Position numbers and translations under genes: made by a program | The notes under the pieces: generated by a model | Told to the model about the DNA's origin: nothing | Seen by the model: the letters and a program-made list of their open reading frames with translations, nothing else | Databases searched by the model: none | In this document: in pieces, positions 14,176-42,781 of the stretch | Numbering within the stretch: the first letter of the stretch is position 1 | Layout of the letters: every line of letters begins with the position of its first letter | IMG/VR virus record: IMGVR_UViG_2554235495_000004 | Span: 1 to 57,783 of that record | Origin: a virus | Length of the DNA stretch: 57,783 nucleotides | Reading direction: 5' to 3' (one strand)

Positions 14176-14262
14176 TTTTATTAGCACAGGGTCTAACGGT
14201 TAGGTATGAGCGGGATGCCGACGCGAGAAATCGGCCGGGCGGTAGGACGCCCGACCCCGCTC
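14176..14262 (+). promoter_or_regulatory. TATA box plus three-way-junction 5'UTR RNA motif, copy 1
   Basis: TTTTATTA 14176-83; P1 14208-14/14256-62, P2 14217-21/14231-35, P3 14236-41/14248-53. Confidence 0.6.
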
Positions 14263-14277
14263 CCAGGTAATGGAAGC

Positions 14278-15198
14278 ATGTCCACATTCGCACCCACCGC
14301 TGAAAACTCCAGCGACACGACGGCCGCACAGCCCACGACCATCCAGACGGAGCGCGCGACCCCTGTAGCACTCGACGGTGCGACGGCCATCTTCGTGCCG
14401 GCATACACCCGCACCGACGACGGCCACGCACTCGAACAGACCCGCGACGAACTCACCCACCTCGTCGGGGTCTACTCGGAACCCGATGTCCGCAAGCAGC
14501 TCGGCGAGGAGTACGAACCCTACGAGATTGAGCGAGCGATCGAGCGCGGCGAGCGCATGACTCAGGAGCACCAGGAAAACGTCTTGGCGGCGATCCGAGT
14601 CGCAGAACAGAACGAAGAGCGCGATCTCGACCGCGGCGAGGGCGTCATGGCGGACGGTGGGGCGCTCACGGTCCACGACGGCGACACCGACACCACCGAA
14701 ACCATCGAAGCGGACGGTGGCGAGGGCGACTCGGACAACGCCGAACGCCTCGCCCGCGGCGAGGCTCCACTCCCCGACGCCGTGAATGGCTGTCAGTATT
14801 GCGGCGCGGATCGAGACGCCATGCACTGCACGGAGGAGGACAGCCACGTCGCGCCCCACAGCCACCACGGGGCGCGGCACACTGTCATCTCGTGCGACGA
14901 GTGCGACGGCGCGCACATCACGGTCTCGCAGGTTCAGACGCGGGTCAACCGCCCATCGCGGCCGACGCACACGAAATCGATCTGGGTCATCCCCGACGAG
15001 TTCGTCCTGTGCGTGTGCATGGACGGCCACATCGTCGACCGCGTCGAGAAGGTCGGCCGCGGCGAAGAGTTCTACACCGCGTTGCTCGACGGCGAACTCA
15101 ACTGTGAGTGTGGCGCAACCGTGACCCACGTCGAGGGGCGCTTTGAGCGCAACGCGGACGGAACGCCCGTCGAACCCCTGCCGGAGCCCGATCACTGA
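14278..15198 (+). CDS. Multi-Zn-ribbon hypothetical protein, first gene of the rightward operon (alternative start 14206)
   Basis: CQYC, CDEC, CVC and CEC motifs; acidic. Confidence 0.75.
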   Translation: MSTFAPTAENSSDTTAAQPTTIQTERATPVALDGATAIFVPAYTRTDDGHALEQTRDELTHLVGVYSEPDVRKQLGEEYEPYEIERAIERGERMTQEHQENVLAAIRVAEQNEERDLDRGEGVMADGGALTVHDGDTDTTETIEADGGEGDSDNAERLARGEAPLPDAVNGCQYCGADRDAMHCTEEDSHVAPHSHHGARHTVISCDECDGAHITVSQVQTRVNRPSRPTHTKSIWVIPDEFVLCVCMDGHIVDRVEKVGRGEEFYTALLDGELNCECGATVTHVEGRFERNADGTPVEPLPEPDH

Positions 15199-15533
15199 TG
15201 ACGGACCCTCTCAACGCCCGACAGGCCTTGGAGGGCATCGAACTCCCGCAGCCGACTCGCTGCCGTGACTGCCACGTCAAACAGTACGAGACGACTCCGA
15301 TCTCGGTCGTCGCGGAACGACCCCACGACGCGGCGGAGTGGCATGTCGTGTGCGCGATGTGCGTTGCCTGCGCAGGCACCACAGTTCGACCCTCGCCAGC
15401 GGCCGATCGGATCCTCGCGGAGGGCGAGATCGCCATGACGGCTGACACTGGTGCGCAAGAACATTGGCCGGTGCTCATCCGCGTGGACGTCGTCGAGACG
15501 CACGAGCTGGCGGCGCGAGGGGTGGAGGTATGA
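15198..15533 (+). CDS. Zn-finger hypothetical protein
   Basis: CRDC and CAMC; coupled. Confidence 0.7.
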   Translation: MTDPLNARQALEGIELPQPTRCRDCHVKQYETTPISVVAERPHDAAEWHVVCAMCVACAGTTVRPSPAADRILAEGEIAMTADTGAQEHWPVLIRVDVVETHELAARGVEV

Positions 15534-16158
15534 TGCCCACCTCGCTCCAGCGCACGCGCGATGAGTGCCCCGACTGCGGCGGCAGTACGAACGTCTGTCG
15601 CCTGCGCGACCTCGTGACGCCCGAGACGAAAACCGTCACGTACTGCGAGGATGGGTGCACCTGGACGGAGGCCGCGTGATGGACGACATCATCGAAGGGA
15701 ACGGCAACCGTGACATGACGGTGGCCGACGCGGTGCTCGATCCCGACGGCCGGCTGTTGATCGATACGGACGCCCGCCGAGACGGGAACCACGACCTGCG
15801 GGAGTGGTCGGAGTGAGCCAGCGCGTCACGTCACCGGACCCGTGTGACAACTGCGGTGAGAACGACAACATCACCGTGTCGCGGTACGTGCCGTGGCTCG
15901 AAGCCCACCGGATGGTCTGTGAGTCGTGCCTGTTCGGCAACTGCGACCTCTTCGGCCGGTCGCGATCGGGTGCGCACTGGAATGGAGCGGAGCACTGATG
16001 ACTGCGAGACCATCGACTGGTGCGGCTCGGCGTGGGCGATCGTCGGCCGCGAAGATGGTCTCATCCGACTGCGGCGCACGCACGACAAGAACGCCCTCGC
16101 CCGGCAGGGCGACGAGGTGCTGGTCCTGCCGGGAATGGTTGGTCTCGACCCCGACTGA
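15530..16158 (+). other. Four coupled small ORFs (15530-15679, 15679-15816, 15813-15998, 15982-16158), two with CxxC pairs
   Basis: Overlapping start and stop codons; CPDCG and CDNCG motifs. Confidence 0.6.
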
Positions 16159-16212
16159 CGACATGCCCCTCCAGGCACCAACAATTATCCCGGCACGACA
16201 CGGAGTGAACCC

Positions 16213-16530
16213 ATGACACAGACGACACCATTCGAGAGCGGAGACACGAACGAAGTGCCCGCGGCGGTGTTCCGCGCGATGGGCGCGATCGTCCAGCAGA
16301 TGCCGGAGTGTGAGTTTGACCGCGTAGCGTTCGCGCAGATGGCCGGCGGCGCGGAGATCGAACTGGAGATCACGTCCACCGAGAACGCGACGTGGATCAC
16401 GAACGCGCTGGAGGAACACCTCACGCGGTGCCACGAGCCCGACATGACGTACACGGGTGAGTCGATTGAGACCGAGGTGCGTGGCTACCTCTCGGCTGAG
16501 GATGCCACGGCACTCATCAACGACTGCTAG
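16213..16530 (+). CDS. Hypothetical protein
   Basis: Acidic 105-aa ORF. Confidence 0.7.
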   Translation: MTQTTPFESGDTNEVPAAVFRAMGAIVQQMPECEFDRVAFAQMAGGAEIELEITSTENATWITNALEEHLTRCHEPDMTYTGESIETEVRGYLSAEDATALINDC

Positions 16531-16552
16531 ATCTGGAACTCGTCTCTAGCCC

Positions 16553-17029
16553 ATGAACACGACAATCAAAACAGAAGACTTGACTAAGACGGATCGGCCA
16601 GCGCACTACAACTATCACACAGAAACCATCTGTACCCTATACTTGGGGTTCGAGTATCGGCCCGGAGAGGGGCTTGTGCTCCCCGAGTATCAAGAGGGTA
16701 CGGACGAACTCCAAAAAGCGATTGAGGGTGACGACGAGCTGACTTTCCGATTCACCGAGAATCGGCATGGCGAGCCAGCACTCAGAGTCAGTCGTCTCAA
16801 AGAGGGGTGGCGCGACTGCCCGTTTGACGGCCTACCGACCCCGGAGCGGGTTCGTAAAGCAAGGGAGTATTGGGAAGAGGGCAAGTCTCTGGAAGAGATC
16901 GACTCCAAGCCCGAAGAGGTCACACCCACGATGACGTGCAAGTGCGGGAATGAGATCGAGTACCGTGGAGACGGCGAGGTCCGCTGCGGACAGTGTGGGA
17001 AGAGACTGGCCGTCGAAACGCCGCGATAA
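16553..17029 (+). CDS. Hypothetical protein with C-terminal Zn ribbon
   Basis: CKCG...CGQCG. Confidence 0.75.
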   Translation: MNTTIKTEDLTKTDRPAHYNYHTETICTLYLGFEYRPGEGLVLPEYQEGTDELQKAIEGDDELTFRFTENRHGEPALRVSRLKEGWRDCPFDGLPTPERVRKAREYWEEGKSLEEIDSKPEEVTPTMTCKCGNEIEYRGDGEVRCGQCGKRLAVETPR

Positions 17030-17052
17030 CTCCGAACTACCTCTAGAACACC

Positions 17053-17298
17053 ATGAACGAAGAACTACCAGACCCAGAGCAGTACCGGATGATCCGGATG
17101 ACCGCGCACCAGTACCTCGATCGTGCGCGTCAAGAGACGGACGAGCCGCTCGGCATGAGCATCGAGTTGAGCGTCGAAGACGACGAACTGTGGGCGTACC
17201 GCATCCACGTGTACGAGCGGGACCAGCCCGATCATGAAGGCCGTCACTGGCACGCTGAGGGAACCGAGCACGAACTGGAAGATCCGAAGCTACCCTGA
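17053..17298 (+). CDS. Hypothetical protein
   Basis: Acidic ORF. Confidence 0.65.
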   Translation: MNEELPDPEQYRMIRMTAHQYLDRARQETDEPLGMSIELSVEDDELWAYRIHVYERDQPDHEGRHWHAEGTEHELEDPKLP

Positions 17299-17332
17299 CG
17301 ACCTCGTACATCAGACTGCTCGCGGCGAAGGG

Positions 17333-17434
17333 CTTTTACTAGCGAGGGTCGTTGTGTGAAACGGATAGGACTGCGGTGGGCACTTCCCCACTGCGTTCTT
17401 ACTACATTCCTTAGCCGCGGCCATGCACAGTCCC
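17333..17434 (+). ncRNA. Candidate promoter-driven small RNA
   Basis: BRE/TATA-like gaagggCTTTTACT, then hairpin 17373-80/17387-94 and closing stem GGACT/AGTCC, between convergent genes. Confidence 0.3.
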
Positions 17435-17447
17435 GCGCCCAAGGCCG

Positions 17448-17741
17448 TCAGTCGAAGTACGAAAGTACCTGTTCCTGCCGCCACTCCATATCCTCGATCA
17501 CCATCTCCTCGCCCTCGTCCGTGAGGGTATAGACGTTCTCCCGCTTCGAGGCGTCCGGTCTGTTTTTGTTCACCATGCCGCGGTCGACAAGCTTGTCCAG
17601 ATTGCGATAATAGGCGTCTCTGCGATTCTGATGCCGGCCCTCCAGATGATCGGCAATGTCCGCTCCGGACGGATCATCGAGGCCGGCGATGCCGAAGAGG
17701 ATGCTAATCTGGAGTCGTGTGGGGTCGTCGTTTCGTGGCAT
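17448..17741 (-). CDS. PadR-like winged-HTH regulator
   Basis: YYRNLDKLVDRGMVNK...RENVYTLTDEG. Confidence 0.85.
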   Translation of the reverse strand: MPRNDDPTRLQISILFGIAGLDDPSGADIADHLEGRHQNRRDAYYRNLDKLVDRGMVNKNRPDASKRENVYTLTDEGEEMVIEDMEWRQEQVLSYFD

Positions 17742-17941
17742 TAGCCGTCCTCCAGCTCGCCGATCCGTTCCTCCACTTCGTCCAGCCGCTCCTTTAGCGA
17801 CTCGGCAGTAGTGGGCGAGACCTCGGGGCGCTGCGTGAGTATCTGGCGGATGTACGCCGAGCGCGTCATGCCCTTCTCGTCGGCCTCGTCGTCCAAATCC
17901 TCGATCAACTCCTCGTCCAGCCGGATCGTGGTCTCTCTCAT
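17741..17941 (-). CDS. RHH/CopG regulator with coiled-coil tail
   Basis: TTIRLDEELIEDLDDEADEKGMTRSAYIRQIL. Confidence 0.88.
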   Translation of the reverse strand: MRETTIRLDEELIEDLDDEADEKGMTRSAYIRQILTQRPEVSPTTAESLKERLDEVEERIGELEDG

Positions 17942-17959
17942 GCCCCGCTAGTCCACAGA

Positions 17960-18040
17960 CCGGCTACAAAACGATACGGATACGGCGGGATGACTGACAC
18001 TGACGCCTCGCGGATGTATCGGTTCCCGATACGTTTATTG
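17960..18040. promoter_or_regulatory. Divergent promoter with GTATCGG-N3-CCGATAC palindrome and GATAC repeats
   Basis: Inverted repeat 18016-18032 directly before TTTATT, 26 nt upstream of ATG 18066; GATAC at 17973 and 17979. Confidence 0.6.
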
Positions 18041-18065
18041 AGATGGAGATGTAAGCGTACTGTGT

Positions 18066-18374
18066 ATGGCAACCACCGAGGAGGCTGCCGAACTGGCGTT
18101 GAGCGACGAAACTGGTTTTCAGCGCGACCTGCTGACGGTCATCGCAAAACTCGGCGATCCCCACGGTCTCGGGATCAAAGAGGAGTTGGAGCAGCACTAC
18201 GGCAAGGAGATCCACCACGGCCGGCTGTACCCGAACCTTGACGACCTGATCCAGCGCGGGCTGGTCGAGAAGGGCGTGGTCGACCGCCGGACGAACTCCT
18301 ACGAGCTGACCGAGCGCGGCCGGCGCGAGATTGAACTCGACCTGCGGTTTCGGGAGGCGTTCATCGATGAGTAA
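18066..18374 (+). CDS. PadR-family regulator
   Basis: GFQRDLL...HGLGIKEELE..HGRLYPNLDDL..RRTNSYELTERG. Confidence 0.92.
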   Translation: MATTEEAAELALSDETGFQRDLLTVIAKLGDPHGLGIKEELEQHYGKEIHHGRLYPNLDDLIQRGLVEKGVVDRRTNSYELTERGRREIELDLRFREAFIDE

Positions 18375-19419
18375 GTCCGCCGACGCGCCGATCACGGAAG
18401 ACCTCGATTGGCGGGAGGTCCACGAGCGCCCCTCGCCGTCGACGATGGCGATCGAGCCGATGCGCCGCGAGGCGAAAGAGGTCACGACGGCGGTCTTTGA
18501 GAACAACTTCAACGTGGATCTTGACGACGCTCTCAGTAGCCGATCTCGGAAGCTACAGCGCGAACTGGAGCGCCGCCTGGGGATCACCTACCCGGACTGT
18601 CCACAGTGCCAGACGGAGGGTGAGTGGGGACAGGAACCCGGCGAGCCGCTAATCTGCTACGTCTGTTGGGAGGGTCCGCCCGAGGACATCCGGCACGAGG
18701 TCCACCGGCAGTGGAAGCGGATTTTTGAGGTGCGTGACGATGAGTGACTCCGCTACAGAGCTAACCGAGAGCGTTCGCGACCAGAACGTCCGGCGACCGC
18801 ATGAGAGGGTGAAATGCGAGTTGCCGCGCTGGGTGCTAACTGAGACGATCGCCTTTGCGGAAGTAGTGGAGCGCGACCGGGAGAACCCCAACTCGCTTCG
18901 AGAAAGCGCCGGGGCGGTCCAGAAGGTGCTCGACCGACGTCTCACACGCTATGACGCGGACTGCACCTGTGGCCCCGACGAGGCGTGCGACAGTTGCCCG
19001 CCGGACAAATTCGGCCAGGAGTCCGCCGATGCCTGAGTCACGCGACGGTTCTCTGAACGAGAGCCGGCACGAGGAAATCGAGATCGTCAACCAGCGGTGG
19101 AAGTGGCAGGTGGTAGCCTCTGCTCTCCGCGCGCTTCTCGAAGACGAGGAGGCAGATCGGCTGCTTCAAGCGGACGCGGAGCCGGTACTCCGCACAATAG
19201 AGAACGGGCTCGAACTGGATGAGGACGAGCGCACAACGGAGACATTCGATGACTGAGCAATCGCAAAACGAGAGCCACCACTACCCGGACGGCGTACTGA
19301 AATCGTACTGTGGCGACTGTGGAGAGCGGTTCTACGCTCGCCGCCATCCGAGCTACTGTCCGTACTGCGGGCATGACAAAGTGTTCAACGAGGGGCACGG
19401 CGAGGTGGGCCATGCCTGA
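18367..19419 (+). other. Four coupled hypothetical ORFs (18367-18747, 18740-19036, 19029-19256, 19249-19419), three Cys-rich
   Basis: Overlapping start and stop codons; CPQC, CTC..C and CGDC..CPYC motifs. Confidence 0.65.
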
Positions 19420-20122
19420 AACAGAGGCAGATGAGAGCCGTCACTGTCTCGATCTCTTCGCCGGACTCGGTGGTTTCTCGGCGGCGTTCGAGGACTCGCC
19501 CGACTGGCGCGTGACGACGGTCGACCTCAACGACGAGTTCGATCCGGACATCTGCGCGGACGTGATGGAGCTCCAGGCCGACGACCTCCCCGACCCCGAC
19601 CTGGTGCTCGCGTCCCCGCCATGCACGGACTTCTCGGTTGCGTGCATCACGCAGAAGTGGGATCATAGCGAGCGACGGCGGCCGAAGCACCTACCGGAGT
19701 GGGAGAGTATCGCTGAATCCGTTGCGATCGTCTACCGGACGATGTGGCTGGTGCAGGAACTCTCCCCGGACTGGTGGTTCATGGAAAACCCGCAGGGGAT
19801 GCTCGGGAAGTTGATCGGCCCTTCGGTCGGAACGGTCCACTACTGTCAGTACGGCAGCGAGTTCAAGAAACCGACCCAGTTGTGGGGTCGACACCCGCCG
19901 ATGGAGTATCGGAAGTGCGGCGGCGCTCCTAACTGCCACGTCTCGAACGCACGGGAGGTCAACACGTTCCGGGACGAGAGTCGCACGCGCGCCGTGGGCG
20001 TCGACAACAGCGCCGAGCGAGCCAAGGTCCCGCGGGAGCTCTCCGAGAACATCCTCGACGCGGTGGAGTCGGCATACCAGAACCCCCCGCCGAAGCAGTC
20101 GCTACTCACGGAGGCAGCATGA
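19412..20122 (+). CDS. DNA cytosine-C5 methyltransferase-like protein
   Basis: Motif I LDLFAGLGG, motif IV ASPPC, motif VI MENP. Confidence 0.88.
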   Translation: MPETEADESRHCLDLFAGLGGFSAAFEDSPDWRVTTVDLNDEFDPDICADVMELQADDLPDPDLVLASPPCTDFSVACITQKWDHSERRRPKHLPEWESIAESVAIVYRTMWLVQELSPDWWFMENPQGMLGKLIGPSVGTVHYCQYGSEFKKPTQLWGRHPPMEYRKCGGAPNCHVSNAREVNTFRDESRTRAVGVDNSAERAKVPRELSENILDAVESAYQNPPPKQSLLTEAA

Positions 20123-20150
20123 GCGATACAGAGCCAACAGGGGGCCGTCG

Positions 20151-21555
20151 ATGAGCTTCGAGGAGTTCGGCAAGACGATGGACAGTCTCATGGACAACAT
20201 GCTGTCGTCGTTCACACGCGCGACGGCCCGCCTCAGCCGCACGATGCAGATGCTCACAAGCCCCGGTCCGTCGGCTGAGGGTCGTCGTCTCACGGAGGAC
20301 CTGTGCCGCGAGGACTACGACCTCGTGGAGCGCAACAGCGTGCGCGTCGACCGCGTTGATTCCGAGCAGCACGCCGGCGACGCGGCGGCCGTGGCCTACC
20401 ACGACGGCACGGACTGGTCGGACGTGACGCGGTACGACCTGAGCGAGATCGAGGACTACCTGGAGCTGGTGAACGATGAGTGACGGTGCGAACTCCGTCG
20501 AAGAGAGGCTGCACGACGGGTATCCGGTGCGAGAGCGGTGGGAAGGTGATTACGACGCCCTCGGATACCAGATCGTCGGGGACCTCTCGGGGCACGAGAC
20601 CGACCCGATCACGATCCACTACGACGATGCCTACGAGCCCGTCCTCGGGACCTTCGAGGGGATCTCCAAACACAACAGTTGGCTGAGTTTAGCCAACGAC
20701 GGCGACTGGGTCACGCTCAGGCCGGACGGCCACCTCAGCAGAGGAGAGCCCGACAACGAGGGATCGATGACCGTGCTCGGGGTTGCCGAAAAAGTGGTGG
20801 CGTGGGAGCATCCCGATGAGTGACGATCTCGTGAAGGAGGTGTATCTGCTGTTCCTATGGGATGGGAACAGCCAGGGGACCCACGACGTCATCGGTGCGT
20901 TCACGAACGAAGATGCAGCCAAGCAGGCAGCCGAAGACGTCGACACGTTCGGAAGCGTTCACGTCGATTCGGTCCCGTTGAATCAGGTGATCGACCTGTG
21001 ACAGAGGGGACGGGGACCTACCGATGACCGAAGAGTACGCCCTCAACCAAGGCAACGACCTCGCGGACGACGACCCGGAGAACCAGTCGAGCAGACACAC
21101 TCTCCGGGGCTGTCTCAAGCTTCATGACTACGAGACGACAGTGGAGTATCTGAGCACTCAGAAGGTGCAAATCAAGCTTGAGTGTCCCAAATGCCCGGAC
21201 CGGCGGTTGCACTATGGGAACTGGAGGTTCGATGACGATGACGAGTGACCCTGCTACACAGCGAAGAGAGCTAGAACAGTTGGCCGCGGAAGTGGTCGAC
21301 GAGAACCGCCACATGGCCAGCGGTGTGCTCACCGACGATTTGGAAGAGCGCCACGCCCACCTCGATGCCCTCGCAAACGAAGCGTTAGACATGACGGACG
21401 GATCGCCGCTGTTCCCGGTCCTCAAACGTGCGATCCGCGACGAGGTCCGCGATCGAGAGGGCGTATCGGCGTGCTGTGGCGCACTGATCCGGACGACGAT
21501 GTACGGCCTGCGAGTGTGCTCGCGGTGCCGGCGGGAGGTAGACGATGCCGACTGA
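20151..21555 (+). other. Five hypothetical ORFs (20151-20483, 20476-20823, 20816-21001, 21024-21248, 21238-21555)
   Basis: Acidic and mostly coupled. Confidence 0.65.
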
Positions 21556-22189
21556 CAACCCTTCGGCAGAGAGCCCTCAAATCCTCCGAGAGCACTGCGT
21601 GTTCGGAGAGAATCGGGCCTATCTGCTCATGGCGATCGCCCGCCGCAAGGAGAACAAGCACCTCTCCAGCTCCGGCGAGATCGTGTTTCGAGAGGTCGTC
21701 AAGGATGGGCGAGACATCCGGCGGAAGTACGACAAACTCCGCGCCCTCGCGCGTGGCTACCGTACCGATAGCGGCGAGGGGGCTAACTTCCGCCTCTACG
21801 TGACGGTGAACGCTCGGGATATGCGCTCAGGGTACTGGAACTTCCGCGAGCGCATGAACGGCTGGTCTCGGGACATGGTGGCCGGCGACGACGCCGTGGC
21901 CCGGAAGCTAAAGCGTGTAGGAGGTCACTGGATGTCGGATCTCCAGAAGTCGGAGAACGCCGATGATCCATGCCTGTTCCTGTTCGACGTCGACGACACG
22001 AGACGCTTCGCGCTGAACTCGATCACCAGCGGGCTAACCGACCACACGGAGCTGCGGCGGGTCCAAGAGACGCCCAACGGCTACCACCTGATAACGGAAC
22101 CGTTCAACCACACCGAGTTCGAGAGTGGCATTGAGCACGAACTGAAGACGGACGGGATGCTATTCGTGGAGTACCTCAACGATGACTGA
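21545..22189 (+). CDS. Divergent archaeo-eukaryotic primase (AEP)-like protein
   Basis: hhhDhD motif (FLFDVDD) and ETPNGYHL resemble AEP motifs I and II. Confidence 0.55.
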   Translation: MPTDNPSAESPQILREHCVFGENRAYLLMAIARRKENKHLSSSGEIVFREVVKDGRDIRRKYDKLRALARGYRTDSGEGANFRLYVTVNARDMRSGYWNFRERMNGWSRDMVAGDDAVARKLKRVGGHWMSDLQKSENADDPCLFLFDVDDTRRFALNSITSGLTDHTELRRVQETPNGYHLITEPFNHTEFESGIEHELKTDGMLFVEYLNDD

Positions 22190-33871: not shown

Positions 33872-33892
33872 TGAGAACTTGTGTTTCTCGTG

Positions 33893-33903: not shown

Positions 33904-34050
33904 GATCAGTCTTGATAGTCTCTGTCCGCCGTGGATTACTTGAATTGGCCCCAAAATCGGCGCAACATCCTCGCCCGCCGTTCGCGGCGGGCCTTCCGCA
34001 CAGTGGAAGTCCGGCCGGCCCGGAGGGGTTTCAGCCCCACTCCGCGAGCG

Positions 34051-34422
34051 TCACACTGGGCCGAGAATCGGCATCGTACTCGTGACACTCTCACCAGCAC
34101 CCGGCTCCTTCACGCCGAACACATCCCGCGAGTAGAGTTGGCTCTCAGAGCCGATGATGAGTGCCGCCTCAGTAATCTGTGTTCCGGCAGGCACCTCGTC
34201 ACCCCCCGTCACGCTGAGTTTTGCCTCATACCGGCCGGGTGTGTCGGGATCGTCGACCCAGTTCAGCGGCGCGTCACCCGTCGTGGCGCGAAAGACCTCG
34301 TTTTCGAGTTGGGTATCGGAGGCTGTCGGGGCCGTCGTGCCGGTCCCGATCGCCATCACATTGACATACCCGCCCACGAGGTGGTCCGATACTGCTTCTA
34401 AACCTGCGTCAGTTTCAACCAT
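34051..34422 (-). CDS. Tail collar/fibre attachment protein
   Basis: MAIGTGTTAPTASDTQLENEVFR motif typical of tail-collar proteins. Confidence 0.75.
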   Translation of the reverse strand: MVETDAGLEAVSDHLVGGYVNVMAIGTGTTAPTASDTQLENEVFRATTGDAPLNWVDDPDTPGRYEAKLSVTGGDEVPAGTQITEAALIIGSESQLYSRDVFGVKEPGAGESVTSTMPILGPV

Positions 34423-34449
34423 AGGAGAAGTCTGAAGGAGTGTTGATCG

Positions 34450-35082
34450 TCAGTCGTCAGAGAAGCCCGCGCCGTAGCCCGTCGTATCGGTCGTCACGAC
34501 ATCGACATCGCCCGTCCGGATGCCGAGGCGCGTCGGTGCCGTCTCGAACTCGAAACTCGTCGCCGACGCCTCGCCGGTTCGGATGCCGAGTCGTGCCGAG
34601 TCGAGTACGTACTCGATCGGGCCGGTGAGTTGTACTGTCGATGGATCGGCCAGTTCCGCGAGTTCATGCACCAACGATACTTCGTGATCGCCCCACTCGT
34701 GGACCGTCAGCGAGTATTCGTTACTCGTGAAGTTCTCGCGCACGTCCACCGTGTCGGGTTCGGCGACGAGGCCGCCCGAGACGGCGACTTTGATGTCTTG
34801 GCTCGTCCCGCGGCCTGAGTAGGCGTTGACGAGAGCTTTGAGGTACTGGCGATACGCACCGTCGCCGCGGCCGAACCGCTCGCCGAGAACGCCGAAGTCC
34901 CACGCCAACTCATCGAGATCCTGGCCATCCGCCCGCTCGATTTGCTGACTCGCGATGACGTATTCGAGGTCGTCATCGAACTGGTCGAACAGCGTCTGGT
35001 GAGCGCGTGCCCAGCCCTGAACATTCGACGGGAGTTCGGGCAACGGCCGCGGGAGGTGATCCGCATAGTCAGTGGTGAACAC
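34450..35082 (-). CDS. Baseplate wedge protein (gpI-like)
   Basis: Follows the J-like gene; DGQDLD..A..FGV..R...D..YR..L motif. Confidence 0.75.
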   Translation of the reverse strand: MFTTDYADHLPRPLPELPSNVQGWARAHQTLFDQFDDDLEYVIASQQIERADGQDLDELAWDFGVLGERFGRGDGAYRQYLKALVNAYSGRGTSQDIKVAVSGGLVAEPDTVDVRENFTSNEYSLTVHEWGDHEVSLVHELAELADPSTVQLTGPIEYVLDSARLGIRTGEASATSFEFETAPTRLGIRTGDVDVVTTDTTGYGAGFSDD

Positions 35083-35085
35083 GGC

Positions 35086-36606
35086 CTACGATCCCCCACT
35101 CTCGACAGTGACGGTGATATTGCCGGGGTCGGCCACTTCACGCTGTGCGATAACTACGTCATCCGCAACGGTGTAATCGACGGTGAACGTCGTACCGTTG
35201 TCGGGATTCGACCCGCCGATGGACCAATCGATCGTGTCAATCGCGCCGTCGCCCGTCGTGTCGGTCGTGGTGTAGTCCGTCCCCGCCACGAATGTAGTCT
35301 GTGAGCCGCCGGCCGTCCCCGTCACGTCGCCGACGTTCGCTGCCGCACTATCGAGTTGGTACTGCGCCGTCCCGCTGGTGTAGGTGTGCGGTTCGTCAGA
35401 TAGCGAGAGCGTGGCGTCAACGTCCGCAAGGTCCCCCGGGGCTGCATCCATCACCTCGTAGGTGATGCGGCCGTCAGCGACGTTCTCGCCGAGCGTGAGA
35501 CTCGCCAGATACTCGGCCAGCGTGTTCTCAATCGCCGTCGTGTCGAGGTCGGTGCCATCGAGCGTCAGATCGACATCCACGACCCGCCGGGTGGCGCGGA
35601 GGAGGCGGTGATAGACCGTCGACGGGAATACGTCATCGCGGTCGAAGAACGTCTCGAACTCGCTATCGGTCACGTCGGGCGCATTCACGAGCACGCGGCC
35701 GTAGGGCGCGCCGTTCGTGCCACTGATGTCGGGGTCGGTCTCGGGATCGTAGGTGTCGATCTCGCTACCGGAGACCGAGAGCGTGGGCGTGCCGTCGTAA
35801 TGCTGGATGATCTCTACGTCGCCGTCGTCGATCGAGGCGAACGCCGAGATGAACTGGCCTTCAATCCCGCCCGTCGTGCCGCCACCCGAGCGATTGACGA
35901 GTGCGTTGCGCGTCCGCTGGCGAAGCGACTCGTTGCCCTCCTCCCCCTCACCATCATACGTAGCGTTCGGGTTCGTGACGGTGAGAATGTCCGACGTATC
36001 CTGTTCCTGTTCGTCGGGGACGTATTCGATTATATTCGAGCCGACGTTGTACTCCGCCCCGACGGCCGCCTCGTTCTCCTCACGGTTCCACGCCGTGATG
36101 GGGAGCGTGACGGTGGTGCTCGCGCCCGTCGGCGACCCGTTATCGGTGATGCGATAGGCGAGATAGTCGCCTGCGGCATCCGGCGTTGTCCCGACGATAG
36201 TGCCTGCCTCGACGGTGGCGTCCGGGCTATCGACGGTGACGAGAATCTCGCCGATGGCCGGCGAGCCCGGATCGCGGACCACGCCGTTCTCGATCGCCTT
36301 CTGGTCGAGGTCGAAATCGACCATCAACGAGTTCAAGTATGGCAGGTCGATCCGGGCGATCTGCTCTTCGGTAAAGAGGGTGGAGAGTTTGTCCTCGGTG
36401 ACGGGGCCGCCGGCGAATCTGAGCCACCCGGAGAGCTGTGCGGCCAGCATCCCGTGCTGGATGTCGCTCAGGTACTCGGCCTCACCATCGAGAAGGATGT
36501 ACTCGGGCGAGTGCTGCGAGAAATTCGTGAGATCGGCTATCTCGCTGGACGTGAGACTAATCAGTCGTTTGCGGGTCGTGTCCGCAGTTTCGATTTGGAG
36601 CGGCAT
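35086..36606 (-). CDS. Baseplate J-like protein
   Basis: GA.YNV..N.I, NP....GEGEEGNESLRQR and GGT..GI motifs. Confidence 0.88.
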   Translation of the reverse strand: MPLQIETADTTRKRLISLTSSEIADLTNFSQHSPEYILLDGEAEYLSDIQHGMLAAQLSGWLRFAGGPVTEDKLSTLFTEEQIARIDLPYLNSLMVDFDLDQKAIENGVVRDPGSPAIGEILVTVDSPDATVEAGTIVGTTPDAAGDYLAYRITDNGSPTGASTTVTLPITAWNREENEAAVGAEYNVGSNIIEYVPDEQEQDTSDILTVTNPNATYDGEGEEGNESLRQRTRNALVNRSGGGTTGGIEGQFISAFASIDDGDVEIIQHYDGTPTLSVSGSEIDTYDPETDPDISGTNGAPYGRVLVNAPDVTDSEFETFFDRDDVFPSTVYHRLLRATRRVVDVDLTLDGTDLDTTAIENTLAEYLASLTLGENVADGRITYEVMDAAPGDLADVDATLSLSDEPHTYTSGTAQYQLDSAAANVGDVTGTAGGSQTTFVAGTDYTTTDTTGDGAIDTIDWSIGGSNPDNGTTFTVDYTVADDVVIAQREVADPGNITVTVESGGS

Positions 36607-36643
36607 AGGTAGAGATGGGGGTTGAGAGCGTCGGAGCCGAGTG

Positions 36644-37153
36644 TTAGCCCGTCGGCTGCACTGGAATCACCACGTCGTGATACTCGTCGTCGGCCGCAAG
36701 GATCTGCATTTCCGCGCCGATCGTGTCGACACCGCTGCGATAGACTTCGGGCGGTTCAGGGACTCGATAGACTCGTGGGTCGCGGGTGACGACGTTGCTG
36801 TACTGGTTGGCGAGATCGGCAAACGTCTCCGGCGTGGGCTGGCCGATCACGGGGTCAGTCTCGCGGGAGATAGCAAACGCGAGGTCTTGGCCAAGCATCT
36901 CCACGCCCGAGGTGGTGGCGAGCGACCCCTGTTCGTTCACGACGAGATCCCATGCCACCTGCCCGTCGTCGGTTTCGCTGGGTGCCCCCGCGAGTTTTAG
37001 CCCCGCCCCGAATGCCTCGCGTGGCGTGGGCCGGTCGGCCTCCTCGCGGCCACGCTGCTCGGCGAGCTGGGCCGCGCGTGAATCTTCCGGTTCGGGGGAT
37101 TCTTCGCCTTCGCCCCATCGAAACTCGCCATATCGCGTTTCGCCATAGACCAT
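36644..37153 (-). CDS. Baseplate gp25/gpW-like protein
   Basis: G.LAT.SG...L.QDL motif; position before J. Confidence 0.7.
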   Translation of the reverse strand: MVYGETRYGEFRWGEGEESPEPEDSRAAQLAEQRGREEADRPTPREAFGAGLKLAGAPSETDDGQVAWDLVVNEQGSLATTSGVEMLGQDLAFAISRETDPVIGQPTPETFADLANQYSNVVTRDPRVYRVPEPPEVYRSGVDTIGAEMQILAADDEYHDVVIPVQPTG

Positions 37154-37156
37154 AGA

Positions 37157-39244
37157 TTACGCCCGATTGATAGGACCGCTGTAGTCGGACCGCCCGCTCG
37201 GATAGTCAATAGAGACATCGGCAACGGCCATCTGCGGGCCGTTGTTGATGACGGCCGTCCCCGACGACGCACTGCCACTCAGCGCCGTGCTTTGGATCTG
37301 CTCACACCGGCCGTCGACGATAATGTCCGGTGCGCCGCCGACATTGCCCATGTGGACCTCGGTGTTCTTGATCGCGTGGAGAACGCCCGAACGCACGTCG
37401 ATCCCGCCACCACACTTGGCGACGTTTGCGAGTTCGACCGTACAGCCGGTGATCGTGACACCGCTGCCTTTGCCCTTGTCTTCGACGGCGAAGCCCTGCA
37501 CGCCGTGAGCGCCTGCATCGGCGTTCGTGAGTTCCGTGTTCTCGTAATCGAACGCCGCCGTGCAGTTCTCGAAGCGGCCGTGCGCGATCCGGCCGTTCGA
37601 CACGCCGTTATTCCGGAACGTCGTACCCGTGGCGACGACGGAACCGCTCGTGTTGGTGGCGTACAGGCCATTATTGGGGAATGAATCGAACACCGAGTCG
37701 ACGATATTGAGCGTACCCTCGTGGTCGTCAGCGAGGAACACGCCGATCGGACGGTCCCCCTCGTGATCGTTGGCCATCACGCCCGCGTGGACCGACCCGA
37801 CGTTTTTGATGCGATTCGCGCCGCCCGAGCTGGTGGCGGGCATCGATATCATCGGCCCGGACTTCGCGCCGAGCGAGGCGGACGGGTCGGGATTCGCCCG
37901 TCGGCCTGAGCCGAGCGTCTGGAAGTATTCGAGAAAGCCACGATCGCTGGTGTTGACGTTCAGCCGACCCCACGCGCCCGAGGCGGTCTGGTCCATGTCG
38001 ATCCCGCTCCACATGAAGCCAGAGCCACCGGAGACCGTCACCGCATAGTCGCGGTAGCCAGCCGGGATCGGAACGGAGGCGTCACCCGTGCCGCAAATGG
38101 CTACATCGGAAGCGTTGCCGATGTTGATCTGCCCATCCCACGAGAGTTCTCCCTCAACCACATAGAGCGTATTCGACGCGCCGCCGATATCGCCCGTTGA
38201 ACTCGCGGTGACGGTGTTCTGAATATCGAAGCCAGCCTGCGAGGCGCGTTCCTCGGGCGTGGCATCGGGATTCGTCGATGGTAGCGTCTCGGTCGGTCCC
38301 GTGCCACCACCTACCGTCACCTGCTTGTCGGGGTCGAACGTGTCGACGTAGGCTTTCGTATCGTGGGCGTCGGTATCGTAGTTTTTGATATGCCCGCCGG
38401 CAACGTAGATCGTGCCATCGACGACGCCCGACGCGCCGACGATCCGGGCGCGATTGCTCGGTATCTGTGGCATCTCCTCGTCCCACGAGTCCGTCTCAAC
38501 ATCGTACCGGAAGACGTTCGGCTTGAAATCGTCGTTCGTGCCGATGCTCCCGACGTGGCCGTAGGCGATGTAGACCTTCCCGTTGATGACGGTATCCGAG
38601 AGCGCCTGCCGGAACGCCATCGGCGCGTCGGCCATGCTCTCGGGTTGACCTTCGTTTGGCCCCGAGAGCGGGTAGCGCGTTGTGGTGGGGACGATGTTAC
38701 CCGACGAGACGTTGTGTCCGCCGAAGTGATAGAGGTAGTCCGTGCCGTCGACGTTCGCCATTGCGACTGACGACCACCGGACGGGCTGGGGGAGTGTCGC
38801 CCATTCGGACGATTCGACGCTGTTTGACGAAGGATCGAATCGCCAGATGCGATCGGTGTCGGTTTGAGCCTCCGCCCCCGTCGCCCCTCCTGCAATGTAG
38901 ATCAGTCCATCCGGCCCGAGCGCCCCGCGGACGGCGTAGACTGGCTCAGGACACGTCGCGCCCAGGGTACTCCACCCGCTACCGGGCGTGAACGTGTAGA
39001 TCGAGTCTTCGATATTCCCCGAGCCGAACACGTCCGTCTCAGCGCCGCCGAAAAGGTAGCACGTTCCGTTGGCAACGACGCCAGCCTGCCCCCACAACGC
39101 TTTCGGGAGGTCGGGGCCGCTCGACCACGAGTCATTCGCCGTATCGTAGGCATACGTGTCCGCCGTTGCGCGGTCGTAGTGACTGTCGAGATCGGTATCG
39201 TCGCGGATACCGCCGAACGAGTAGATTGTACCGTTGACGTTCAT
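37157..39244 (-). CDS. Six-bladed Kelch propeller fused to a family-A beta-helix
   Basis: Six Y.(F/A)GG...(Y/F)D..W-type repeats followed by a beta-helix with FPNNGLY; no signal peptide. Confidence 0.85.
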   Translation of the reverse strand: MNVNGTIYSFGGIRDDTDLDSHYDRATADTYAYDTANDSWSSGPDLPKALWGQAGVVANGTCYLFGGAETDVFGSGNIEDSIYTFTPGSGWSTLGATCPEPVYAVRGALGPDGLIYIAGGATGAEAQTDTDRIWRFDPSSNSVESSEWATLPQPVRWSSVAMANVDGTDYLYHFGGHNVSSGNIVPTTTRYPLSGPNEGQPESMADAPMAFRQALSDTVINGKVYIAYGHVGSIGTNDDFKPNVFRYDVETDSWDEEMPQIPSNRARIVGASGVVDGTIYVAGGHIKNYDTDAHDTKAYVDTFDPDKQVTVGGGTGPTETLPSTNPDATPEERASQAGFDIQNTVTASSTGDIGGASNTLYVVEGELSWDGQINIGNASDVAICGTGDASVPIPAGYRDYAVTVSGGSGFMWSGIDMDQTASGAWGRLNVNTSDRGFLEYFQTLGSGRRANPDPSASLGAKSGPMISMPATSSGGANRIKNVGSVHAGVMANDHEGDRPIGVFLADDHEGTLNIVDSVFDSFPNNGLYATNTSGSVVATGTTFRNNGVSNGRIAHGRFENCTAAFDYENTELTNADAGAHGVQGFAVEDKGKGSGVTITGCTVELANVAKCGGGIDVRSGVLHAIKNTEVHMGNVGGAPDIIVDGRCEQIQSTALSGSASSGTAVINNGPQMAVADVSIDYPSGRSDYSGPINRA

Positions 39245-39246
39245 GT

Positions 39247-39786
39247 CTAAGGCGGGTCTCCTCGGCCACCGTCCGGCATGTCCGATCCCTCACCCCACGT
39301 CGGCTGTTCGACAGTGCGTGTGCCGTCGCTACTCCCGTCGCTCGTGGTGAGCGTGCCTTCGCTATCAGTGATCGTGATGAGACCGGCGGCGTCGATGTTG
39401 ATGTCGCCGTTCGGTAGCATCTCGATCCGCGACCCGCCGAGATTCCACGAGAGTTCGCCGTCCGAATCCGGTGCGGCATCGTCTGCGTTATAAAAACTTC
39501 CCGAGATGTACGGCTGTGGAGGGGTGCCCGCAAACCAGCTAATGATGACGGGATCGTCTTCGACAAGCGGGCGTGTCCCACCGAGGACGCTCGGGTGGAC
39601 TTCGACATTCGTGAGATCTGCGCCTTCGCTGTCATCATCACCCTTCGCGAAATCCACCTCGGCGACGGGGCCAGGGAGATCTGTCTGATAGTCGATCGAA
39701 CGAATGACGGCCTGGCGATCGAGATGTTTGGAGCGGTTGACCGTTTGGTCTTGCGCGCCACGATCCGTGGGGTCTGTATCCGTCAT
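39247..39786 (-). CDS. Baseplate spike (gpV-like)
   Basis: OB-fold-like N-terminus with DDPVII.W..G.P..PYI.G; beta-strand repeats. Confidence 0.75.
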   Translation of the reverse strand: MTDTDPTDRGAQDQTVNRSKHLDRQAVIRSIDYQTDLPGPVAEVDFAKGDDDSEGADLTNVEVHPSVLGGTRPLVEDDPVIISWFAGTPPQPYISGSFYNADDAAPDSDGELSWNLGGSRIEMLPNGDINIDAAGLITITDSEGTLTTSDGSSDGTRTVEQPTWGEGSDMPDGGRGDPP

Positions 39787-39788
39787 AG

Positions 39789-40931
39789 TCAGGGAGTTGG
39801 CGTTCCGGGGCCGCGAACGTCTCCCTCGGCGTCTACCGCCCCATCGATGAGCGCGCCGACTTGGACTGTTGTGACGAAGCCCGAATCCGAACTGAGTTCG
39901 TGCGTCACTTCGCTCACGAGGTACTCCTGGCCGCCGAGACTGTCGGGCATAATCACCGTGTCGAGCGGCTGGATGCGCTCGTCGCCCACGAGTTTGATCT
40001 GACCCGTGCCGCTTTGGCGCTCGAACTCGTCGAGTAGCGAGTGGGCCGTCTGCTGGGCCGTCTCGACGTTCGTGATCGACTTGTCCTCGTGCTCGTACAC
40101 CCGCGCGCCACTCCCCGTGTCGCCAGCCACCGCCCGCACAGGGTCTTTCGAGGCTGAATACACGCGAGAGGCACCCGTCGCCTCGCCGCCGCCGATCACC
40201 ACCACCCCATCATAGGGTGCGGTCTGGAGGCCGGGATCGGTATCGGGCAGGATGTGCTCGATCTCGTGTTGCGTAACCGCGAAGTTCGATCCGTCGGTGA
40301 ACACGGGGAGCCCACCCGGCGTGGACGGATCGACGTACCACGCCCCGCGGACGCGGTTGGCCATGTCGTCGAGCACGCCCGCACACGAGCGCCCCTCGTA
40401 AGCCGTGAACGTGCTCGCGTCCTCATCGACATCCACACGAGCGGGTGCAACGTCGGCGAACGCACAGACCGTCGTGATTACCGTGTCGAGAGGGGCGTCG
40501 TCGAACGATGCCGTGACGGTGCCTTGTTTGAGTTTGCGAACGGAGTCATATGAGTCGATGACCACCAGCCCTTCATCGTTCGGTGCCGATACATCAACAC
40601 GGCCGGAGCCGATGGGCGTCCCGTTGATCCGAGCCATCACGATCTCGTCCTGCTCGGGATACCTGTCGGCGAGGATCTTCGTGACGAGGAGTGCCGATTG
40701 ATTGTACCGCGAGGATTCGTATGAAATCTCCGTGACGGGGTACACTTCGCCGTCGTCGAACTCCGCCTCGCCCGTATCGGCCGCCGAGGCGGGCAGGACC
40801 GCAACGTCCGCAGTGATCTCTTGCTGGAGGGCAGTCCCGTCGAAGTCGACGTCCGCCGTCTCGGCGGGTTCGCTCTCGGTGCCAGTCCCGCCAGGGTTGA
40901 TCGGCCGGAGCTGCTGTGGGACGTCCGGCAT
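39789..40931 (-). CDS. Baseplate hub (gpD-like)
   Basis: Position; G.I.LVGD.RIQPLD.V...G..YLV.EV.H motif. Confidence 0.78.
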   Translation of the reverse strand: MPDVPQQLRPINPGGTGTESEPAETADVDFDGTALQQEITADVAVLPASAADTGEAEFDDGEVYPVTEISYESSRYNQSALLVTKILADRYPEQDEIVMARINGTPIGSGRVDVSAPNDEGLVVIDSYDSVRKLKQGTVTASFDDAPLDTVITTVCAFADVAPARVDVDEDASTFTAYEGRSCAGVLDDMANRVRGAWYVDPSTPGGLPVFTDGSNFAVTQHEIEHILPDTDPGLQTAPYDGVVVIGGGEATGASRVYSASKDPVRAVAGDTGSGARVYEHEDKSITNVETAQQTAHSLLDEFERQSGTGQIKLVGDERIQPLDTVIMPDSLGGQEYLVSEVTHELSSDSGFVTTVQVGALIDGAVDAEGDVRGPGTPTP

Positions 40932-41428
40932 TACAGTGAAGAGGGCGTATCCGGCGTGGGGTTGATGTCGCTCGATCCACCGCCACCGCCGACGGGGCTG
41001 TCCGCACCAGTCGGACTCGTCTCTTTGAGTGTGAGTGAGAACTCCTTGAGGAAGACCGTCTCGGGATCGTCGTCACCGTCCACGTCGCGGGAGTAGCGTG
41101 TCCGTGTCGGGCTGATGTCGTAGTCCTCGACAGTCACGTCGAGCGTGCCACGATCCGGCAGGCGAGCCTTGATCTGTGGCACTTCATACAGCCGTTCGAC
41201 AGTCGTCTCGTCGCCGGGAAAGCACGCACCGTCGACGGTATAGGTGCGTGATCCAGGCCCCATCCACTGCGTGACGTCCTCCGTGTCGATCGGTTCGTGC
41301 GTCGTGCTCTTACTCGAACCGGAGGAGCCCACATCAGGGCGATCGAGTTCAACGGGCAGTTCTACGCGCAGGTCGAGTGGGCTGGACCCAGGGGTCCAAA
41401 AGGCCGCAGACAAGTTTCTCGGAGGCAT
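40931..41428 (-). CDS. Tail tube initiator-like protein
   Basis: Position after the tape-measure region; Q.MGPGSR.Y.V.G. Confidence 0.6.
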   Translation of the reverse strand: MPPRNLSAAFWTPGSSPLDLRVELPVELDRPDVGSSGSSKSTTHEPIDTEDVTQWMGPGSRTYTVDGACFPGDETTVERLYEVPQIKARLPDRGTLDVTVEDYDISPTRTRYSRDVDGDDDPETVFLKEFSLTLKETSPTGADSPVGGGGGSSDINPTPDTPSSL

Positions 41429-41473
41429 AGTATGTAGAGAGTGTCGGCCGTCAGTCGAACCGCAGAGATCGCG

Positions 41474-42679
41474 TTAGTCGTCAGCGAACGCGGCAAACGT
41501 CGATTGTTCGGGCGTGGGTGTGGGGTCTTCGGGCGGCGTCCAGCGTTCGCGTCCGCCGGGCAGCTCGTCGTCGGTCCAATCGCGGAGGAGTAGGTCTACT
41601 TCGGGGAGTGCCCGAACGTAGGCCTCGGCTTTGTGGTGGCACTCGTCGCAGACCGTGAAGAGCACATCGTCGTTGTTGCACCCACCATCGAGGAGTGCCG
41701 GGAGGTGATTGACTGTGAGCGCGCGGTCCTGTTCGGAGGTGTGCTTACCGCAGACTTGGCACTCGTGGTTATCGCGCTCGCGTATTCGGGGCGCGGTTTG
41801 AGTCTCCCACGTCTCGGCACGGATGAGCTTCTTCACCGCCTCCCGGGTGCAATATCCGCCACGCCATTGGTGGTGGTCTTGGCCGAACACGTTTTCCGAT
41901 TGCCATCGATCCTTACACCCCCGTGAGCAAAACCTGGCCCTCCCCAACCGCGCTGGTTTTACTGGTTCGATCTTACCGCATTGCTCACATTCTATTTCGG
42001 CCTTGCCACCCTGCCAGCGTGGGTTGTCTTCCCCCTCTCCTATGTGGGCCGTATCAGACCGGGTTTCAATACCGTGGCTGAGTAATGCTTGCCGTACTGT
42101 TGAAAAAGAGAAGCCGAGGTCCTCAGCTATTGTATTTATTGAGTGTTTTTTACCGACGTATAACCGTTCCATCTCCTCGGGGTTGTCGAGAATCTCATAC
42201 CCACCTGGGTTTTGCGGCTTCCGGTAGTCTTCGCCGCCGATATCATGCTCCCTGAGGCGGCTTCTGATTGTTTGCCGGCAACACCCTGCTTCGTTGGCGA
42301 TCTCTTGTAGCGTCTTCTGGCGATTTATGAACAGTTCCCAGAGAAGGTGTCCGTTGTCGTACTCGGGAGCGGCCTTCTTTTCCTCTATCGTACTCTCACG
42401 CCATCCGTGGCCTCTGCGGTTGATGTCGTTCTTGTCCAACCCACCTTGGATGGCTGTGTAGGAAGCGTCCCAATGGGCCGCTATCTCATTTATCGACATT
42501 CTCTCTTCAATGTATGCCTCACGCAGGAGTTTCTCGCTATCCCACGGGGCGCAGACATCGCAGTCTGACTTGTTCCCGTGCATAGCGCGCGACCGGTTGG
42601 ATGGGAACTCCCTGCCACAGTCAAGGCACTCGTATCCCTCACCGTCAGTGCTATTGTCATCGGCGTCGTACTCTGTCAT
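41474..42679 (-). CDS. HNH-like endonuclease with C2H2 finger, three HTH-like repeats, NUMOD3-like and TRASH-like motifs
   Basis: RERDNHECQVCG...VNH...VCDECH; GEDNPRWQGG; CEQC..FCSRGC. Confidence 0.8.
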   Translation of the reverse strand: MTEYDADDNSTDGEGYECLDCGREFPSNRSRAMHGNKSDCDVCAPWDSEKLLREAYIEERMSINEIAAHWDASYTAIQGGLDKNDINRRGHGWRESTIEEKKAAPEYDNGHLLWELFINRQKTLQEIANEAGCCRQTIRSRLREHDIGGEDYRKPQNPGGYEILDNPEEMERLYVGKKHSINTIAEDLGFSFSTVRQALLSHGIETRSDTAHIGEGEDNPRWQGGKAEIECEQCGKIEPVKPARLGRARFCSRGCKDRWQSENVFGQDHHQWRGGYCTREAVKKLIRAETWETQTAPRIRERDNHECQVCGKHTSEQDRALTVNHLPALLDGGCNNDDVLFTVCDECHHKAEAYVRALPEVDLLLRDWTDDELPGGRERWTPPEDPTPTPEQSTFAAFADD

Positions 42680-42693
42680 GCTTGGACCCAACC

Positions 42694-42781
42694 AAGCACG
42701 GTCGGTGTCTGACCACCGGCCGTTTTCTCCGAACGGCGATACCGTGCTTCGTTGGAAAATAATAGACGGTGGTCCCTTATA
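42694..42781 (-). promoter_or_regulatory. TATA box plus three-way-junction 5'UTR RNA motif, copy 2
   Basis: TATAAG 42781-76; P1 42749-41/42702-694, P2 42737-33/42723-19, P3 42718-14/42707-03. Confidence 0.6.

Follow-up and report, generated by a model that had tools for sequence, protein, structure and literature searches.

The window analysed in this study is a stretch of 57,783 nucleotides (IMG/VR record IMGVR_UViG_2554235495_000004) that represents a myovirus-type provirus in a haloarchaeal genome contig (G000:C2:95856-153638). It contains three copies of a structured RNA leader, a three-way junction (3WJ) followed by a short hairpin, which is located between a TATA-like box and a start codon and is the subject of this report. 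Copy 1 (14208-14262, plus strand) heads the rightward early operon of roughly 9 kb, which begins at 14278 beyond a low-GC divergent control region near 12-14 kb. The first gene of this operon (14278-15198, plus strand) encodes a protein of 306 aa without a Pfam family and starts at the conserved AUG behind the leader, and an 85-aa Rep-like gene (13844-14101, minus strand) is oriented divergently at a distance of 106 nt from copy 1. Copy 2 (42694-42749, minus strand) precedes a gene for a 401-aa protein with helix-turn-helix (HTH) and HNH endonuclease domains (41474-42679, minus strand; Pfam and PHROG matches). Copy 3 (1395-1450, minus strand) lies between the 3' end of the integrase gene (1-1248, plus strand) and an open reading frame (ORF) at 1542-1730.

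The original prediction, a note made from the letters of the window alone, had proposed two copies of an un-named 5'-UTR motif, and both 3WJs are found at the positions that it gave, where each of them represents the minimum-free-energy (MFE) structure (copy 1: -31.2 kcal/mol, z -3.6; copy 2: -28.2 kcal/mol, z -4.8). They consist of the closing stem P1 and the two hairpins P2 and P3. The P2 loops, which contain GAGAAA (CGCGAGAAA and UCGGAGAAA), and the 6-nt P3 loops (GUAGGA and GUCAGA) correspond to those described there. The alignment of the two copies also bears out that the stems differ in sequence and still pair, with six base pairs changed on both sides and none broken. The promoter geometry holds as well. 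The TATA box of copy 1 (TTTTATTA, 14176-14183, plus strand) is located 24 nt ahead of the motif, and the homologues introduced below carry a B recognition element (BRE)/TATA box at equal distance; the corresponding TATAA of copy 2 (42777-42781, minus strand) lies 27 nt ahead within a CTATAAG that recurs in two further loci (L065 and L079). AAGC-AUG follows both copies, as had been noted, but AAGC is not merely the end of a spacer, because it forms part of a fourth helix (P4).

A covariance model built from copies 1 and 2 alone (R1) and an improved model (R2) were used for the searches, and this approach, which the prediction had suggested, retrieved a third copy in the window together with dozens of homologues at the same position between promoter and AUG. 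The motif is accordingly present three times in the window and not twice. With R2, copy 1 scores 65.9 bits (E 3e-14) and copy 2, whose 3WJ is the most canonical of the window according to MFE fold and model, 69 bits (E 5e-15). Copy 3 is a diverged 3WJ with one G.U pair in P1 that is recovered by both models and by folding; it scores 28.6 bits with R1 and 43.4 bits with R2 (E ~1e-8), while the rest of the window does not exceed ~14 bits with R2. It is followed by a degenerate P4 (GUUCUC ... GAAAGC, one mismatch) and the ATG 1376-1374 (together 1374-1398, minus strand), and downstream there is only an ORF of eight codons. A TATA-like T-rich box (1481-1487, minus strand) occupies the same -37 to -31 position as the TATA box of the family and could be a promoter, an oligo-T terminator of the upstream leftward genes, or both.

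The family comprises more than 70 instances, all of them from Halobacteria genomes, IMG/VR contigs and the halovirus ChaoS9, plus a diverged copy in phiCh1. R2 matches with E <= 0.001 were obtained for 22 of 151 evenly sampled Halobacteria genomes, representing 16 of 57 genera. A pattern scan of IMG/VR followed by R2 identified six viral contigs including ChaoS9 (MK310226, 42014-42078), whose link to the window surfaced by this route only; when the phage collection was searched with the region and with a canonical member, megablast and blastn gave no match. The pattern scan of named genomes yielded 91 loci, 80 of which were scanned with R2. Thirty passed, all from Halobacteria, among them Halorubrum, Natrinema, Haloferax mucosum, Haloarcula japonica, Halobacterium salinarum DSM 3754 and plasmids of Haladaptatus, and none of the bacterial pattern matches among the 80 scanned loci did so. 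Four matches of R1 or R2 (L004, L010, L011 and L013) were discarded, as they are located inside coding regions and lack the surrounding features. The phiCh1 copy (AF440695, 34055-34112; L091 1501-1558) scores 23.7 bits and resides in the intergenic region between ORF48 (rep) and ORF49, and no copy was detectable with R2 in phiH1. A single copy was detected in most proviruses. We conclude that the motif is a real, widespread and previously undescribed RNA family, namely a leader of haloarchaeal tailed viruses and proviruses.

Each accepted instance shows the same arrangement, with a BRE/TATA-like box ~31-38 nt upstream, a conserved GUA-N-G directly ahead of the motif, the motif itself on the sense strand and a start codon shortly downstream. 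The placement of BRE/TATA box and GUA-N-G predicts a transcription start ~3 nt upstream of the motif. From there the order is 3WJ, short hairpin, GAAGC and, 1-2 nt later, AUG, and the distance between the end of the 3WJ and the AUG ranges from 10 to 19 nt. The homologues were to be checked for covariation, which is present and strong in alignments of 10 and 42 sequences. Standard pairs account for 98.0% of the 3WJ cells in the 42-sequence alignment, compared with 81.1 +/- 0.9% in shuffles and at most 38.5% in a control with slid partners, and 14 of the 17 pairs exhibit changes on both sides; this alignment was fitted to the model and is hence biased toward the structure, and the ten-sequence alignment agrees with it. 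The same 42 sequences contain 36 G.U pairs but only 14 non-pairs, a surplus that fits the sense strand as the folded RNA, and R2 scores in the window reach ~14 bits on the opposite strand versus 66-69 bits on the sense strand. Among the single-stranded parts, conservation is seen for a purine-rich tetramer (AGAA or GAAA) located at the P2 apex or close to it and for the P3 loop (L3), which has mostly 6 nt (range 4-7 nt); the P2 loop (L2) ranges from 3 to 12 nt. The junction strands are short (0-5 nt overall), with 0 nt between P2 and P3 (J2/3), 0-2 nt between P3 and P1 (J3/1) and a J1/2 strand that varies in length and sequence, while the junction-proximal G-C base pairs are conserved in sequence.

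The fourth helix connects the junction to the start codon. Its 3' arm is the AAGC before AUG, and its 5' arm starts in nearly all members with the last four nucleotides of the P1 3' strand (GCUU) and the C that follows them. When 53 distinct sequences were aligned with MAFFT without structure, 94.6% of the P4 cells were paired, compared with 80.4 +/- 1.2% in shuffles, a result that was repeated by an independent script. GCUU/AAGC is invariant, and the adjacent pairs covary (pair 8-19: GC 20, UA 20, CG 8, AU 2; pair 9-18: GC 19, CG 12, UA 5). The P4 hairpin of copy 1 (GCUCCC ... GGAAGC, 14259-14277, plus strand) contains one C.A mismatch in the alignment, overlaps the P1 3' strand with its 5' arm and ends 1 nt ahead of the ATG at 14278. 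The equivalent of copy 2 (GUGCUUGG ... CCAAGCAU, 42677-42699, minus strand) has the GCUU in common with P1 and takes the A and U of the ATG (42679-42677) into its 3' arm. Such pairing of the A and U of the start codon occurs in at least three members (window copy 2, L037 and L039), P4 reaches the base just 5' of AUG in about 12 of 40 members, and three viral contigs (L063, L065 and L068) present the AUG inside the P4 loop.

GCUUC is thus complementary to two sites, the 5'-terminal GAAGC, which completes P1, and the AUG-adjacent GAAGC, which forms P4. The sharing of this strand by P1 and P4 makes two mutually exclusive RNA forms possible, and each of the two helices joined by GCUU(C) has its own evolutionary support. 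For the outer P1 pairing, compensatory substitutions are seen in L032, L033 and, in the window, copies 1 and 3. Three members with GCUUUC in the middle strand (L009, L021 and L017) have GAAAGC at the AUG-proximal site, and at their 5' site L009 and L021 carry a matching GA ahead, while L017 matches in part. Judged from the comparison of sequences, the evolutionary evidence for two competing conformations is good, and the four helices, the shared strand and their position relative to promoter and AUG are defined at the same level. Constrained folding with standard parameters places the P4 state (state B) +2.0 +/- 2.6 kcal/mol above the closed P1 state (state A; n=41), with 8 of 41 members favouring B, and the two states are hence predicted to be near-isoenergetic family-wide. 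The canonical copy 2 of the window, with state B 2.9 kcal/mol above A, is nearly balanced.

The comparison with Rfam that had been proposed is in line with an un-named motif. Rfam 15 gave no match in the whole window at gathering thresholds, and E-value searches around copies 1 and 2 returned chance-level hits only (12-16 bits versus gathering scores of 39-50). The canonical members L016 and L005 as well as ChaoS9 and phiCh1 showed no match at the motif either. Features of individual classes are equally missing. ARAGORN detected no tRNA, tmRNA or t-element in the window, and L3 does not have a T-loop consensus; the short, variable junction strands and the lack of an Rfam ribozyme match do not agree with a hammerhead or another small self-cleaving ribozyme. 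A role of GAAGC as a mimic of the haloarchaeal type I-B crRNA 5' handle was considered and rejected, because no such repeat is present in the genome at up to three mismatches and the resemblance is limited to 5 nt. Literature searches for the motif found no description. The element would work like a riboswitch or translational operator, yet it belongs to none of the named families considered.

The genomic position indicates which transcript the leader may control. The Rep-like ORF of the window has no Pfam match, but it corresponds in size and position to ORF48 (rep) of phiCh1 and to the HTH protein ChaoS9_310, and in seven other loci tblastn located a homologue that lies upstream of the motif in divergent orientation. 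The motif thus occupies the divergent switch between rep and the early genes in the window, in ChaoS9 and in phiCh1, whose ORF49 is regulated by Rep (PMC4284463). Given the divergent Rep-like gene and the parallel to the two viruses, the motif would head a Rep-controlled early lytic transcript. The genes behind the leader are unrelated, as had been claimed for the first two copies, and range from 8 to 401 aa across the family; flanking genes are barely conserved between loci, and the leader is therefore much more conserved than its neighbours. The strong covariation, the constant placement between BRE/TATA box and AUG, the unrelated genes and the lack of an Rfam match uphold the initial proposal of a shared 5'-UTR element, which presumably acts in cis on translation and/or stability.

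We favour with moderate confidence a bistable cis-regulatory leader with which the Rep-controlled early transcripts of temperate tailed viruses infecting Halobacteria would begin. In state A, GCUUC would pair with the first GAAGC, so that P1 closes completely, which buries the 5' end and leaves the start region unpaired; this state would permit translation and protect the 5' end. In state B, GCUUC would pair with the second GAAGC and close P4, with the AUG abutting the helix, partly in it or in its loop and with the 5' GAAGC as a free tail. State B would block initiation and might leave the 5' end open to decay. As a platform, the 3WJ would decide between the states through its folding or through its recognition by a conserved partner, and we infer that switching takes place, that state A is the ON state and that an effector exists. 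The most likely partner would be a protein of the host or the ribosome at initiation, with contacts to the AGAA apex and the junction-proximal G-C pairs; in the latter variant, ribosome binding would open P4 and let P1 close. The conservation of the element in numerous host genera, as opposed to its varying viral neighbours, makes a host-encoded partner probable, and the variable junction disfavours a pocket for a small molecule. The provirus of the window would have reused the leader ahead of an inserted HNH gene and near its integrase.

Several observations weigh against such a switch. Copy 2 is the only one of the window copies that is near-balanced; state A is preferred by 3.7 kcal/mol in copy 1 and by 10 kcal/mol in copy 3, according to energy parameters that, like those for the whole family, are standard and not meant for multimolar KCl. 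The first P1 pair of copies 1 and 3 is G-C rather than A-U, which results in a C.A mismatch in P4 and favours the closed P1, and both copies may be locked in state A. The invariance of GAAGC/GCUUC could have another cause, for example a protein recognition sequence, and the J1/2 strand varies in length and sequence. The genome papers of ChaoS9 and phiH1 make no mention of the element. For leadered haloarchaeal mRNAs lacking a Shine-Dalgarno sequence, the assignment of ON and OFF is a guess.

Among the alternatives, a static 5'-terminal stabiliser and/or translation enhancer is possible, if rather doubtful. The 3WJ would cap the early mRNA and so shield it from decay that depends on the 5' end, and P4 would fix the context of the AUG, all without switching. 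Stem-loops at the 5' terminus that stabilise mRNA are well established in bacteria, e.g., for ompA, and the leader resembles them in that its structure starts within a few nucleotides of the predicted transcript 5' end. State A is also the MFE structure of most members, with a strong preference in copies 1 and 3 of the window. However, the leader is far more elaborate than the ompA type, and a simple cap would require no 3WJ with its conserved AGAA apex and no additional GAAGC in competition for the same strand. The near-invariance of the three 5-mers and the covariation of the adjacent P4 pairs would have no explanation.

An extension of the bistable leader, which we consider unlikely, is that the 3WJ represents a true sensor, either riboswitch-like or sensing a host factor, that reads a conserved cellular signal and would be the first of its kind in an archaeal virus. 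It would then respond, for example, to the state of the translation apparatus, to an ion or to a metabolite, gate translation of the first lytic gene once repression by Rep has ended and add an RNA checkpoint to the archaeal lysis-lysogeny decision. The specific version of a riboswitch for a small molecule or ion, in which the 3WJ is the aptamer, the ligand stabilises P1 and P4 is the expression platform, is improbable. Its logic is that of the Vibrio add adenine riboswitch, which likewise consists of a 5' 3WJ whose P1 3' strand is shared with an alternative helix reaching the start codon, and riboswitches of the add type also have two mutually exclusive states of similar stability. The sequence conservation of the junction-proximal pairs would fit. 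In contrast to the add riboswitch, the leader has no conserved junction pocket, no loop-loop kissing and no Rfam match. It comes from an archaeal virus and not from a bacterial metabolic gene, and instead of a Shine-Dalgarno sequence, which it lacks, the five nucleotides ahead of AUG and sometimes the AUG are sequestered. The ligand-pocket junction nucleotides and the complementary 7-nt L2/L3 kissing loops of purine-type riboswitches were not found, and inspection revealed no consistent complementarity between L2 and L3 or between the loops and the coding region. Minimal junction strands with a variable J1/2, an L2 of 3-12 nt and downstream genes that share no metabolic theme are further arguments against it.

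The idea that the leader gives rise to a trans-acting immunity RNA, or is the target of one, stands lower in our ranking. In phage P1 C4 and satellite P4 CI, the leader is cut to release a 3WJ-shaped RNA, which shuts off the downstream genes by pairing with two sites complementary to it. The leader shares with this seqA/seqB/seqC triad a closing stem with two hairpins, three short, mutually complementary segments within one leader that controls the first downstream gene, and a location in the immunity/early region of a temperate virus. In the virus group of the leader (Vertoviridae and relatives), an early lytic transcript of phiH is controlled by an antisense RNA (Stolt and Zillig 1993, reviewed in PMC4284463). 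This system and the Rep/ORF49 switch of phiCh1 resemble the leader as post-transcriptional control of the first lytic transcript beside a repressor gene. However, the complementary segments comprise only 5-9 nt, are adjacent in cis and apparently pair within one molecule; the loops show no complementarity to downstream target sequences upon inspection, and the Rfam C4 model (RF01695) reaches just 15 bits versus a gathering score of 45, and this on the antisense strand. Unlike the phiH transcript, the leader has no known antisense partner.

The next candidate in descending order, an element that modifies RNA polymerase and makes transcription of the long early operon processive, has a slender chance. 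The put sites of HK022 and the nut sites of lambda are also structured RNAs that lie just past early promoters of temperate phages and are repeated within the genome. A promoter-proximal element at the head of the ~9-kb operon would fit this function, and with the conserved RNA polymerase as partner, one would anticipate conservation across hosts. The put and nut sites act on the polymerase at terminators, whereas P4 is locked to the position of the AUG and not to any terminator, and the element also precedes single genes and ORFs of 8-28 codons and was mostly detected in one copy per provirus. We know of no archaeal precedent for such a polymerase modifier.

Barely credible is the absence of any RNA element, i.e., the motif as the coding N-terminus of a leaderless ORF (ATG 14206; ChaoS9_315) or as an inverted-repeat DNA operator, since the frame from 14206 is indeed open and in phase with ATG 14278, the annotation of ChaoS9 places the motif inside a coding sequence and the P1 sequence is highly conserved, but the leaderless start that the prediction had named as a possible objection is disfavoured family-wide by in-frame stops in 16 of 41 homologue leaders, by leader lengths that are not multiples of three, with distances from motif start to AUG taking all residues modulo three, by the lack of conservation of the in-frame ATG 14206 and by substitutions that follow a compensatory pairing pattern, with G.U pairs in all helices, and P1 as a Rep operator was rejected because P1 stays the same where Rep-like proteins have diverged or escape detection and because the covariation is strong and of the RNA type.

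The leader occurs in about one in seven of the sampled Halobacteria genomes and at the lysis-lysogeny switch. To our knowledge, only a very small number of structured RNAs with a cis-regulatory role are known in Archaea, and since the antisense work on phiH in the 1990s there has been hardly any study of how haloviral early genes are controlled post-transcriptionally. Our literature search found no description of a cis-regulatory structured RNA in archaeal viruses. The presence of the leader in cultivable systems, namely ChaoS9/Halobacterium salinarum S9 and phiCh1/Natrialba magadii, makes its function directly testable. It could show how haloarchaeal ribosomes start on leadered mRNAs without Shine-Dalgarno sequences, which is a long-standing question. 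Moreover, the leader is a marker for the early promoter of haloarchaeal proviruses that corrects start annotations such as that of ChaoS9_315.

The annotated start of this ChaoS9 gene (MK310226, 41997-42602; L086 3781-4386) is located 17 nt upstream of the motif, so that its coding sequence spans the whole leader, and the family-conserved AUG follows in frame 99 nt (33 codons) downstream. The start of ChaoS9_315 is probably mis-annotated, and the same probably applies to the ORF call from 14206 in the window. In phiCh1 a P4-like hairpin is present, and the annotated start of ORF49 is located ~370 nt further on. The ORF right behind the leader has only 8-28 codons in six loci (L023, L026, L028, L029, L030 and L031) and behind window copy 3 (1350-1376, minus strand), and in L030 this ORF, of 21 codons, runs into the beginning of an HNH-like gene (263 aa). 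In some cases the leader may drive a short upstream ORF and not a protein gene. Most members exhibit, despite their unrelated ORFs, an A-rich patch (GAAAA or GAUAA) from position +26 after the AUG that is often followed by A-Y-C-G (window 14300-14320 and 42640-42660; loci L005-L170 at +22 to +38), and the conserved module seems to extend ~13 codons into the ORF. A fifth hairpin presenting this patch was rejected as marginal, with a mean stem of 2.9 versus 2.5 +/- 0.14 in shuffled flanks and a folding z of ~0.

The remainder of the provirus comprises a leftward block with PCNA (6353-7099, minus strand), RNase H-like (RVT_3; 3788-4252, minus strand) and HTH genes, a C5 cytosine methyltransferase gene (19310-20122, plus strand) and a long leftward structural array with portal, protease, capsid, sheath, tape-measure and baseplate genes. 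A protein-based search found no relatives of the first early gene in IMG/VR, and the gene is unique among the motif loci; homologues of the second gene of the operon are located downstream of the motif in three loci. The HNH gene does follow copy 2 as had been described, but it is an insertion inside the tail-gene array and not the head of an operon. It is flanked by tape-measure/bPH genes on one side and baseplate genes on the other, its G+C content at third codon positions (GC3) is below that of its neighbours and it coincides with a local GC dip. The HTH+HNH gene, its promoter and the leader together form a low-GC3 insert (41474-42811), which resembles a stand-alone homing endonuclease cassette that has taken up the early leader of the virus together with its first codons. 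HNH genes are located downstream of the motif in two further loci (L030 and L133).

Beyond the 8-codon ORF, a transcript from copy 3 (1240-1490, minus strand) would be antisense to the 3' end of the integrase gene, and in an excised circular provirus it would continue toward the structural genes at the other provirus end. Two genomes harbor near-identical cassettes of leader plus first gene in pairs on the same strand, which are 6 kb apart in G079 (L005 and L014) and 16 kb apart in G037 (L036 and L041); this arrangement suggests tandem proviruses or local duplications.

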